A DNA stretch of 11,797 nucleotides, taken from a virus. Taxonomy: Duplodnaviria; Heunggongvirae; Uroviricota; Caudoviricetes. Within the stretch, counting starts at the first letter, position 1, and each line of letters opens with the position of its first letter. A program made the position numbers. The stretch is taken from the IMG/VR virus record IMGVR_UViG_2740892233_000017; one strand, written 5' to 3'. Of this stretch, positions 9,001-11,797 are shown in pieces.

Positions 9001-11797
9001 TCGTACCTGACAAACGCCGCGCAAAGCTCGTTAAACAACCCCGCCCGTACTTCAGCCAGGAAAGCGTCGGTGGCCGGAGTTTCAGGAATCCGTCTCCTCA
9101 TCCGTTCTATTGCATGATTGAACCCGAAATCTTCAGCAAGAGATACGTCATCCATATTGTCATTGTCGTCCTCAATATCCCGTGGTTCTGGAATTGCAGA
9201 CTTTATTACCGCATTCTCCGCCGCCAGCGCCACAAGATTAGCTTTCAGCTCTGCAATTCGTTTGTTTTGGGCTTCCCGTTCATCCAGTAGTGCCAGCGCA
9301 ACATTTGGATTAAAAGCAGCAATAAATTCAGCGTTTGCATAAGCCTGAACATCTGTTTCAACCAGGCAGTTAACATGACATTCTGCAATTACGCCACCGG
9401 GCTCTCCTTTCCATTTTTGACAAACAAAAACTCCTGTTATATTCCCATGCTGATTGCCCGATGTATGCCCTACGATGTAGCATCCTTTAGTTGCTTTCTC
9501 TGCTGCTTCACGCAGCGCCTGATAGTCAATCTCGCTCATTCATCGCCCCACTCATCACAATATGCTTCGACCGGATTTTTTCCTGCTTCATAATCATCAC
9601 GCCATGCTTCAGCATCAGCAGCACTGCCACCACGTAACTCTGCATATTCCATTAACAGTTCATGCCATTCTTCAAAACTGACGCTGTATTTAGTTGAACC
9701 AAAATCAGCCATTTTGTTCTTCCTCTTCGTCTTTTATTTCGTGATATGAATAATTGCAGTAGTTAAAGAAAATATCTTTTGCTTCGTCATGTATTTCATC
9801 AGGCGTCGCATCATCATCCACTTCGAATTCATCCTCGAAATCTCCACCGGCTATTCCCGTTTCAATAATTATTTTAAACTTTCGCATTTAACTACCGCCC
9901 TTTCGGGCGGCCTCCTGACATTAATCGTTGTGGTAACTCATGGCTTCATTTGCAACATCAACCGGATCAACCTCCCTCCAGCAATAATTTGGGTCGGCTC
10001 CTTCAGGCGTCCACGGTTCTAATTCATNNNNNNNNNNTTCCATTTGTTCACCACGGGTAAGCCCGTTTTCAAGCGGATTTTTAATGAACAATTCAATACG
10101 TTCTTTGGTAATAGTGGTCATGTGTTACTCCTTAACCCGCAGTGCTTTCAACTGATGAGGGGAACAAAATCTTTTCATCAAACCCTGCATTCATATCATG
10201 AACAGCAACACACCAATCCATCGACGAACGATTATCAAGAGCCTCCATGATTTCATCCATGCGGCGTAGGTCATACAGGTAAATGCTTTTATCGCCAATG
10301 GTGTAAAAGCCAATTTTTTTCGGTGATGGACAGCGATCAAGAACTTCCTGTAATTCGTTCAACCATGCCCGTTCTTTTTTTGTCAAAGTTGCCATATCAG
10401 TTTTCCTTATACGGATTAATTTTATTGTGCAGTGTGTTGAATGACGCCCATACCACGTCGGTATACAATTCAGTAACTGGCTCAATTATTTTTCCGATTA
10501 TCCAGACTAGGATTAACGGGGATATCGGTATCATCAACACGATAAACAGAATGAGAAACAGAAATTCTGTTGTTCTACTCTTTCGCGGATATTTTTTCTA
10601 AATAATGTGACCATTCATTACCGCCCTTTCGGGCGGCCTCCTGACATTAATCGTTGTGATAACTCATAGCTTCATTTGCAGCATCAACTGGATCAACCTC
10701 CCTCCAGCAATAATTTGGGTCGGCTCCTTCAGGCGTCCACGGTTCTAATTCATTTTTTGCCGCATTCTCATCGCCAGTAATTTTAAAAATCTGCTCAGAG
10801 AATTTTCTTGCCCACTCGTTATATTTTTCCGCATTAATGGCTTTCTGTGTATTTAACATAAATATACCTCCAGTTCAGGATTAGATTTTATTTACAGCGC
10901 TAAATTTATTTATTCAGTTCTGGATTTTGTCGCCCTGCGTATCCGCGCTTTCGCGTTACGTTCAATCTGAATTAACTTTTCTATATTTTTCCGCCTTTCC
11001 TGTTCCTCCTGGCGCAATAGCCTTACATCATCTGCCAGTCTGGTTTCTCTTTTCGCCACAGAGAGCATCCAGTCAAACGGCTCCACAACCGCACCGCAGA
11101 TTTTACAGCGGACCTGGCGCTCTTTTTCGTCAACCCGAACAGAGGCGTGATGACAATATGGTCTTTCCGATGGCTCATAAAGAAAATTAACCTGATTACG
11201 AGGGTCATCCTCTTTTACCGGAAATAAAACGATATTGCTTAACTCATCCTCTGGTTTTATTTCCATGCTCCTCTCCTTTGATGCGAATGCCAGCGACGCG
11301 TAATGCGTGTTCTAGGTCAATCAGGTAAAGCCAACTGCCATTTTCTTTAGGTATCATGACATGTCGCTCATCTGCATTTATCGGGTGTCCATATCGAAGG
11401 TCGTAGCGAGTCGGTAATTGAACTTCCCGCGCATCCAGTTCAGCAATACGCTTGCTCCCATCAGAGATAACGCCTTCGTAATACTCACGCTGCTCGTTGA
11501 GTTGTGATTTTGCTTCTTCCAGTCCATCCAGCAAACCAGCGATAATATCCGCTTCCCGATGACGGATATGACGCTTAAACGCAGCAAGAGCCGCATCACA
11601 ATCCCGTTCAGCATTTGGGCTGTCCGGGGTAGCCTGATACCACGCCAGCGTCGACTGATAGTTTTGTGCTGCCTCACGAAGCGCCTCATAGTTAACCTCT
11701 CTCATCGAGCCACCTCCTGATAAATCACCGCATGCCCCAGTTTCTCCGCCAGTGCCAGCTCTGCCTTAGCGCCCGCTGACCGCTGCCAGCCATTCAG

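Follow-up and report, generated by a model that had tools for sequence, protein, structure and literature searches.

An 11,797-nucleotide (nt) stretch of viral DNA (Caudoviricetes; IMG/VR record IMGVR_UViG_2740892233_000017), called the window in the following, carries at 9536-10859 a series of short open reading frames (ORFs) for acidic proteins. It raises the question of whether these proteins are nucleic-acid mimics directed against host defence, as was proposed in a first-pass annotation made from the sequence alone, and, before this, which of the ORFs are genes at all. We found that the real unit is a string of three genes, o70 - o60 - o58, flanked by o118 and an ea22-like gene, while a fourth ORF of about 66 amino acids (aa) very probably arose at an assembly gap. 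Two of the three proteins are extreme in their acidity, and a role as decoys or inhibitors can be suggested for them tentatively.

Three small genes between two Ead/Ea22-like genes

The genes of the unit and those next to it are:

8904-9539, minus strand: Ead/Ea22-like gene, 211 aa, net charge -19 (PF13935, E = 3.5e-39)
9536-9712, minus strand: o58, 58 aa, 16 D+E and 4 K+R residues, net charge -12, isoelectric point (pI) 4.05; PHROG 519
9705-9887, minus strand: o60, 60 aa, 20 D+E and 5 K+R residues, net charge -15, pI 4.05; DUF7167/PHROG 1997
10647-10859, minus strand: o70, 70 aa, 14 D+E and 7 K+R residues, net charge -7, pI 4.5; PHROG 4659
10910-11266, minus strand: o118, 118 aa, zinc ribbon and basic coiled-coil tail; PHROG 1621
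11244-11705, minus strand: o153, Ead/Ea22-like N-terminus and a weak MucB/RseB-like match

The ORFs of 58, 60 and 70 aa were thus recovered as the first-pass annotation had given them. It had also ascribed a large excess of D/E over K/R to the whole series. To put numbers on this, the net charge per residue was compared with that of 161 ORFs which lie next to diverse homologues in the early regions of phages, 0.6% of which reach -0.20 or lower and 4.3% -0.10 or lower. Against this background o60 (-0.25) and o58 (-0.21) are real acidic outliers, while o70 (-0.10) is mildly acidic only. The excess is therefore extreme in two of the proteins and modest in the third, and the 66-aa ORF, being an artefact in all probability (see below), drops out of the comparison.

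We consider o70, o60 and o58 almost certain to be real coding genes. For o70 the ratio of nonsynonymous to synonymous substitution rates (dN/dS) was 0.23-0.25 against two alleles; for o58 and o60 nothing could be concluded from it, either because the differences were too few or because the frame of the annotation was offset. At its stop, o60 overlaps the start of o58 by 8 nt, and the stop of o58 in turn shares 4 nt (ATGA) with the start of the ea22-like gene, an arrangement which suggests that the three genes are probably translationally coupled. Further, scans for sigma-70-like promoters on the coding strand and for intrinsic terminators gave no hit within the small-gene cluster, so that the small genes appear to be part of one long early transcript. 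The acidic genes lie between two Ead/Ea22-like genes and on the same strand as the genes for the integrase, the excisionase and the MT-A70 methylase. The Ead/Ea22-like gene at 8904-9539 marks this part of the window as the exo-xis accessory region, and o60 and o58 belong to the early exo-xis operon.

The families of o70, o60 and o58 are unrelated to one another in hhalign profile-profile comparisons, which rules out paralogy of the three. None of the small proteins of the cluster matches a known defence system in PADLOC, and no functional annotation for o58, o60 or o70 was obtained from Pfam, PHROG or NCBIfam, the single NCBIfam match being at chance level (o70, 13 bits against a cut-off of 248 bits).

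At the gene junctions of this region we noticed a hairpin on the minus strand, GCCGCCC-GAAA-GGGCGGU (7 bp with a GAAA tetraloop), which is present in three copies at 10620-10637, 9894-9911 and 8822-8839 (repeat family D3; folding z-scores -3.65, -2.20 and -1.27). Each copy is preceded by an AGGAG Shine-Dalgarno-like motif and followed, 6-7 nt downstream, by the next start codon. It is not an intrinsic terminator, because no T-run follows it. It may represent a 'split' ribosome-binding site that is joined by folding, and/or a boundary of mosaic recombination.

The 66-aa reading frame at a probable assembly gap

The region between o60 and o70 contains three further ORFs:

9921-10121, minus strand: 'o66', composed of the 5' 28 codons of a DUF551-type gene (10038-10121), 10 N (10028-10037) and the 3' 34 codons of an o70 allele (9921-10027)
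10132-10395, minus strand: o87, 87 aa, not acidic, PHROG 1714; in the putative second-prophage segment
10397-10614, minus strand: frameshifted DUF4014 pseudogene; in the putative second-prophage segment

Thus, the genes for the acidic proteins are not strictly consecutive in the window, as had been thought, since o87 and the pseudogene lie between o70 and the 66-aa ORF. The two sides of the run of Ns in the latter have different relatives. Positions 7040-10027 form one colinear block with phage ArgO145 at 99.4% identity, which ends exactly at the Ns, and positions 10038-11797 form one colinear block, again at 99.4%, with a nin-region prophage of E. coli 01_3327, which starts exactly at the Ns. 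In the E. coli 01_3327 context, the N-terminal part, MTTITKERIELFIKNPLENGLTRGEQME, runs on as LARIALASLEAEPVAK..., and the gene is of the DUF551 type. In ArgO145 and in the Shiga toxin 2 (Stx2) phage LC645446, located at wrbA, one intact o70 ends with the 34 C-terminal codons, and o60 comes directly after it.

These matches also account for the conserved C-terminal domain which two of the proteins had been said to share behind different N-termini. It corresponds to a direct DNA repeat of 140 nt across the N gap (9888-10027 and 10614-10753, 96% identical) and not to a protein domain that has been joined to two N-termini, and the repeat together with the two contexts of the flanks means that two o70 alleles stand side by side in the window. 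The 64 nt adjoining the gap (9964-10027) are even identical to 10690-10753, and an exact duplication of this kind beside a gap is what a repeat-induced break in an assembly would be expected to leave.

The reading frame contains the 10 Ns, and the junction was found in no independent genome: it occurs neither in 5,426 complete E. coli genomes nor in 50,697 phage records (INPHARED), the GTDB representatives or IMG/VR. The apparent full-coverage matches to it in E. coli genomes consist of two pieces, which are 716 nt apart and in the opposite order. A second run of 10 Ns is present at 6747-6756. Its flank 6500-6746 matches at 100% and the alignment ends at 6746, while no genome in the set of 5,426 complete E. 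coli genomes covers at least 80% of the 501 nt spanning this gap. With both N-runs having flanks that match different loci, the window behaves as a scaffold of three contigs. On these alignments we conclude that it very probably consists of the pieces 1-6746, 6757-10027 and 10038-11797, and that 'o66' is an artefact. The ORF 6724-7041 also crosses an N gap and is untrustworthy.

One observation speaks against an artefact, namely that the 66-aa ORF stays in frame across the 10 Ns. If these masked 10 real bases, the ORF would be a genuine recombinant gene in a true tandem of the order o70 - DUF4014 pseudogene - o87 - chimera - o60. Such a gene would suit the mosaic nature of lambdoid phages, and some database proteins (P0245, P0246) indeed carry the same C-terminal module after other N-termini. 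However, the flanks belong to two contexts with alignments that stop exactly at the Ns, the second N-run behaves alike, the junction is missing from every collection searched, and the 64 nt next to the gap repeat 10690-10753 exactly, as at a repeat-induced contig end. We therefore regard a genuine 66-aa gene as very unlikely.

If the window is a three-piece scaffold, the most parsimonious reconstruction is that 10038-10689 would be a branch of a second lambdoid prophage of the nin-region type, that the own o70 of the prophage would be 10754-10859 joined to 10027-9921, and that the true local order would be o118 - o70 - o60 - o58 - ea22, as in ArgO145. The DUF4014 pseudogene in the putative branch is 87% identical to the intact paralogue at 8598-8816 (repeat D1), and its 99.4%-identical copy in E. 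coli 01_3327 is annotated as 'frameshifted' in RefSeq. The description of this family in PHROG 1832 reads 'released from the phage upon host infection'. Another repeat concerns the DUF551 gene at 5550-6446, in which 606 nt (5742-6347) are 99.3% identical to the continuation, in E. coli 01_3327, of the truncated gene at 10038-10121. An inter-prophage repeat of this kind would account for the break between the contigs. ORFs that cross N-runs should be treated with caution where a genome with several prophages is present as a draft assembly, since they can give rise to false 'domain-shuffled' genes, as very probably happened here.

Two acidic protein families and their possible role

The protein o60 matches Pfam DUF7167 (PF23768) over its full length (55.1 bits with a cut-off of 24.4 bits, E = 7.9e-15) and PHROG 1997 with E = 9e-31. 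It is an ordinary member without differences to the family, of typical size and with the conserved core FEV-(D/E)DDAT-EEIEE...FN.CNYG(W/Y). A search with the DUF7167 profile retrieved 213 clusters at 50% identity, nearly all of them stand-alone proteins of 50-60 aa. Among 96 diverged full-length representatives the net charge has a median of -10 and ranges from -18 to -3, none of them being basic. In the alignment, 15 columns hold at least 60% D/E, the conserved acidic columns including 22, 24-26, 29-31, 33-34 and 38, and a basic patch is conserved at positions 2, 3, 5 and 37. Acidity is thus conserved by position across DUF7167 and, judging from this pattern, is under selection. The family is found in Enterobacterales prophages, in virulent Klebsiella Guernseyvirinae and in virulent Enterococcus Herelleviridae, and so spans phages of Gram-negative and Gram-positive hosts; the Enterococcus homologue matches PHROG 1997 with E = 3e-24, its Pfam score being below the threshold.

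To see in which company DUF7167 genes occur, 101 neighbouring ORFs from 20 diverse loci were scanned with Pfam. The neighbours encode RecT, ERF, DUF2800/PD-(D/E)XK, AAA_24, NinB, RecU, SNF2, DNA methylases, Mom, Nmad5, ligase, N peptide, Ea22 and DUF551, which is a generic set of early DNA-metabolism and accessory genes. Annotations of some phages had prompted us to consider a specific link to recombination exonucleases, but this was rejected, as such adjacency occurs in at most two of the 20 loci. The Enterococcus neighbour labelled 'exonuclease' is actually a DUF3850/ASCH protein, while the Klebsiella neighbour is a genuine PD-(D/E)XK nuclease whose gene overlaps that of DUF7167. In these virulent Guernseyvirinae (locus L094, 3501-5025, Klebsiella phage VLCpiS11a; locus L096, phage 37P2), the DUF7167 gene overlaps the start of a gene for a 454-aa DUF2800/PD-(D/E)XK nuclease by 11 nt, and a Gp2.5-like single-stranded DNA-binding protein and a DNA polymerase are encoded downstream. 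The 55-aa DUF7167 gene of phage 37P2 is itself wrongly annotated as 'PD-(D/E)XK phosphodiesterase'.

The protein o58 matches PHROG 519 (E = 1e-21; virulent-phage homologues E = 9e-25 and 3e-18), a family which is common in Ackermannviridae and enterobacterial prophages, is absent from Pfam and has the core F.EWH..L...A..GGSAADA[DE]AWR[DE]DY[DE].GKTP...[WY].DEWG. It was found in about 200 phage records, mostly of virulent Ackermannviridae (Det7, PhiSH19, ECML-4, Menlow), at 52-58% identity. The virulent phage Menlow and Morganella phage Mecenats66 have proteins with the same conserved core as o58, although o58 spans only positions 76-137 of the 143-position PHROG 519 profile. The label 'DUF5419' on one GenBank homologue of o58 was not reproduced by the Pfam scan. 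In contrast to these two families, which occur in temperate and in strictly virulent phages and hence are not specific to lysogeny, o70 (PHROG 4659, E = 3.4e-50, full length) was found only in Escherichia and Shigella (120 matches, all at least 71% identical).

How constant is the arrangement of the three genes? In the 80 IMG/VR loci listed with an identical o60, o118 is located upstream of o60/o58 in almost all cases, and directly so in most, while o70 stands between o118 and o60 in only about seven. The gene o58 follows o60 in all 80 of these E. coli-type loci, with a fixed offset (the overlap of 8 nt) in 78. This pairing is restricted to E. coli-type loci and is lost in distant ones, so that o58 was rejected as an obligate partner of DUF7167. 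The same module is also present in the nin region of other prophages. In ArgO145 (NC_049918) the order o118-o70-o60-o58-Ea22 is identical, with gp16, gp15 and gp14 directly adjacent and annotated as hypothetical proteins. Its o60 and o58 proteins are 100% identical to those of the window, and it differs by having a single complete o70 and by lacking the inserted DUF4014 pseudogene, o87 and the chimeric segment. We suggest that o118 may functionally be part of the acidic module, and that o70, which is only mildly acidic, has a narrow distribution and can be missing from the module, probably serves another accessory function.

What could o60 and o58 do? The decoy strategy, in which a protein mimics nucleic acid, is used by Ocr, Gam, gp5.9, p56 and Gp2. 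By analogy, o60 and o58 would be compact, soluble and strongly acidic proteins that are made early after infection or induction, and each would bind one host protein one-to-one and block its positively charged nucleic-acid-binding surface. Candidate targets would be restriction enzymes, nuclease defences of the RecBCD/AddAB class, or another DNA- or RNA-handling enzyme. The presence of two extreme acidic outliers, their place in an early exo-xis operon and the positional acidity of DUF7167 are consistent with this idea. Like Ocr, ArdA, lambda Gam, T7 gp5.9 and Ugi, o60 and o58 are small, have a pI of about 4, and are early proteins of an accessory region; gam and gene 5.9 abut recombination or exonuclease genes, and DUF7167 does so in some phages. 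In size and acidic excess, o58 and o60 fall into the mimic class. However, they show no sequence, profile or significant fold similarity to any of the five proteins named, and searches of Pfam, NCBIfam, PHROGs and the PDB (sequence and profile) placed them in no characterised mimic family.

Compact folds were predicted by AlphaFold2 for both proteins: for o60 (mean predicted local distance difference test score, pLDDT, 79.7) beta(2-10)-beta(15-23)-alpha(29-39)-beta(46-51) with a short acidic C-terminal helix, and for o58 (mean pLDDT 81.7) a three-helix bundle. Significant similarity to any known mimic was not found. In a Foldseek search of the PDB with o60, nothing scored below E = 1.4 and the top ranks were RAM/ACT-like domains; Bacillus phage p56 at rank 2 (E = 1.5, TM score 0.37) and the epsilon subunit of RNA polymerase (RNAP) at rank 14 were not significant. 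PDB sequence and profile searches found no solved structure for the DUF7167 family. With o58, o60, o70 and their family profiles they gave only chance-level matches (uL23, designed repeat proteins), and the profile searches retrieved no DNA mimic; Gp2 chains are in the PDB, but even with a limit of E <= 10 none was retrieved by the profiles of the o60 family. Lambda Orf55, which is encoded in the same genomic region, has been modelled as a member of a beta-beta-alpha-beta class resembling p56, Gp2 and RNAP epsilon (PMC8614690). The predicted fold of o60 is compatible with this class of small acidic phage inhibitors (T7 Gp2, lambda Orf55, phi29-type p56), the match being not significant. To our knowledge, the known DNA mimics have no common fold, and a missing fold match therefore does not refute the mimic idea.

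Several findings nevertheless weigh against acidic decoys. The predicted fold of o58 is a generic three-helix bundle. In the neighbourhood survey no partner recurred in more than two of the 20 DUF7167 loci, and no association with defence was seen. ArdA-type anti-restriction genes are common on plasmids; DUF7167 is very rare there (15 of 72,556 plasmid records), and an association with plasmid leading regions was rejected on this count. Neither the family names nor the motifs occur in the accessible supplements of EVADES, a catalogue of 268 anti-defence proteins, or in those of a phage accessory-gene screen. A literature search found no mention of the DUF7167 and PHROG family names and accessions, and nothing specific on DNA mimics or Gp2 in connection with lambdoid phages or prophages. 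Finally, those exo-xis genes which have been characterised influence either the choice between lysis and lysogeny or the physiology of the host (PMC8614690, PMC7093339).

The last point leads to a reading in which o60, o58 and o70 are modulators of this kind, similar to orf60a, orf61, orf63, orf73 and ea22, and are not directed against defence. The exo-xis location between two Ead/Ea22-like genes, the apparent translational coupling of o58 to the ea22-like gene and the published pro-lytic or pro-lysogenic effects of neighbouring small exo-xis genes (PMC8614690, PMC7093339) would fit. On the other hand, both acidic families occur in Ackermannviridae, Guernseyvirinae and Herelleviridae, virulent phages in which there is no lysogeny decision, and this argues against a purely lysis-lysogeny role, as does the occurrence of the same module in the nin region of other prophages. 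No sequence similarity to the solved structures of Orf63, Ea8.5 and Ea22 was seen either; none of them was among the few weak PDB sequence matches, and no such Pfam family was found. We consider this reading unlikely, and to the same degree one in which the acidity is incidental, the proteins being small scaffolds or chaperone-like partners of Ea22 or o118, or transient 'filler' ORFs without an important function. It could draw on the tight linkage of the module to o118 and Ea22, on the acidity of the whole region, where even the ea22-like protein has a net charge of -19, and on the fact that no library assigns a function. Yet both families remain full-length and of the same size at 35-55% identity across distant phage groups, with conserved acidic and aromatic positions, and neither the o58 partner nor Ea22 is conserved beside distant DUF7167 genes.

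Alternatively, o60 could be a Gp2-like binder of host RNAP that tunes or inhibits sigma-70 transcription. The predicted beta-beta-alpha-beta fold, the appearance of Bacillus RNAP epsilon in the Foldseek list and the precedent of lambda Orf55, for which this was proposed (PMC8614690), point in that direction. A profile-sequence search, however, failed to detect Gp2, and DUF7167 spans Gram-negative and Gram-positive hosts whose beta' jaw regions differ. Lambdoid phages rely on host RNAP throughout their development, so that a strong inhibition of the Gp2 type would be self-defeating. This makes RNAP binding a highly improbable function of o60.

Thus, the decoy idea is the one we put forward, at graded strength. 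That o60 and o58 are acidic decoys or inhibitors is, by analogy with the known mimics, possible but short of probable; that they act specifically against defence is doubtful. It is rather unlikely that DUF7167 and PHROG 519 constitute two unrecognised broad-range decoy families which neutralise a conserved nuclease-type defence or DNA-handling enzyme. The overall explanation is limited by its mechanistic step and is a tentative one. Since o60 and o58 are 100% identical to hypothetical proteins of known phages, they are at most uncharacterised small acidic phage inhibitors.

The surrounding early-left arm and the meaning of the acidic genes

The window covers the left (pL, exo-xis) arm of an ArgO145-like (Oslovirus-type) Stx prophage of E. 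coli, which is lambdoid and integrated at wrbA. The phage records nearest to it are ArgO145 (Oslovirus) and a number of Stx2a-converting phages, including one integrated at wrbA. Besides the genes given above, it contains:

1-579: wrbA, at the window start
576-1910, minus strand: tyrosine integrase
1939-2238, minus strand: excisionase
3446-4072, minus strand: MT-A70 DNA methyltransferase
4556-5224, minus strand: AntA-type antirepressor
5550-6446, minus strand: DUF551 protein
7060-7685, plus strand: ParD/ParE-type toxin-antitoxin pair
8231-8596, minus strand: small HNH endonuclease (Pfam HNH)
8598-8816, minus strand: intact DUF4014 gene, 72 aa

From the integrase onwards, all of the genes listed are on the minus strand except the ParD/ParE pair, which is inverted relative to the surrounding early-left operon and is also found in ArgO145. 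Directly upstream of the antirepressor gene, at 5236-5325 on the minus strand, there is an Rfam match to sRNA-Xcc1 (RF02221; 65.4 bits with a gathering threshold of 53). In PADLOC, Septu PtuB models match the HNH protein weakly (E = 3e-8). Rather than a defence gene, this is probably a phage HNH gene that stands alone.

Should o60 and o58 indeed prove to be decoys, two widespread, very small and easily tested families would be added to the counter-defence and host-takeover toolkit of phages. This would concern the 213 DUF7167 clusters as well as the o58 homologues in about 200 phage genomes, including Ackermannviridae of the type used in therapy. It would also provide a first function within a part of the exo-xis region of Shiga-toxin phages, which is still poorly understood.

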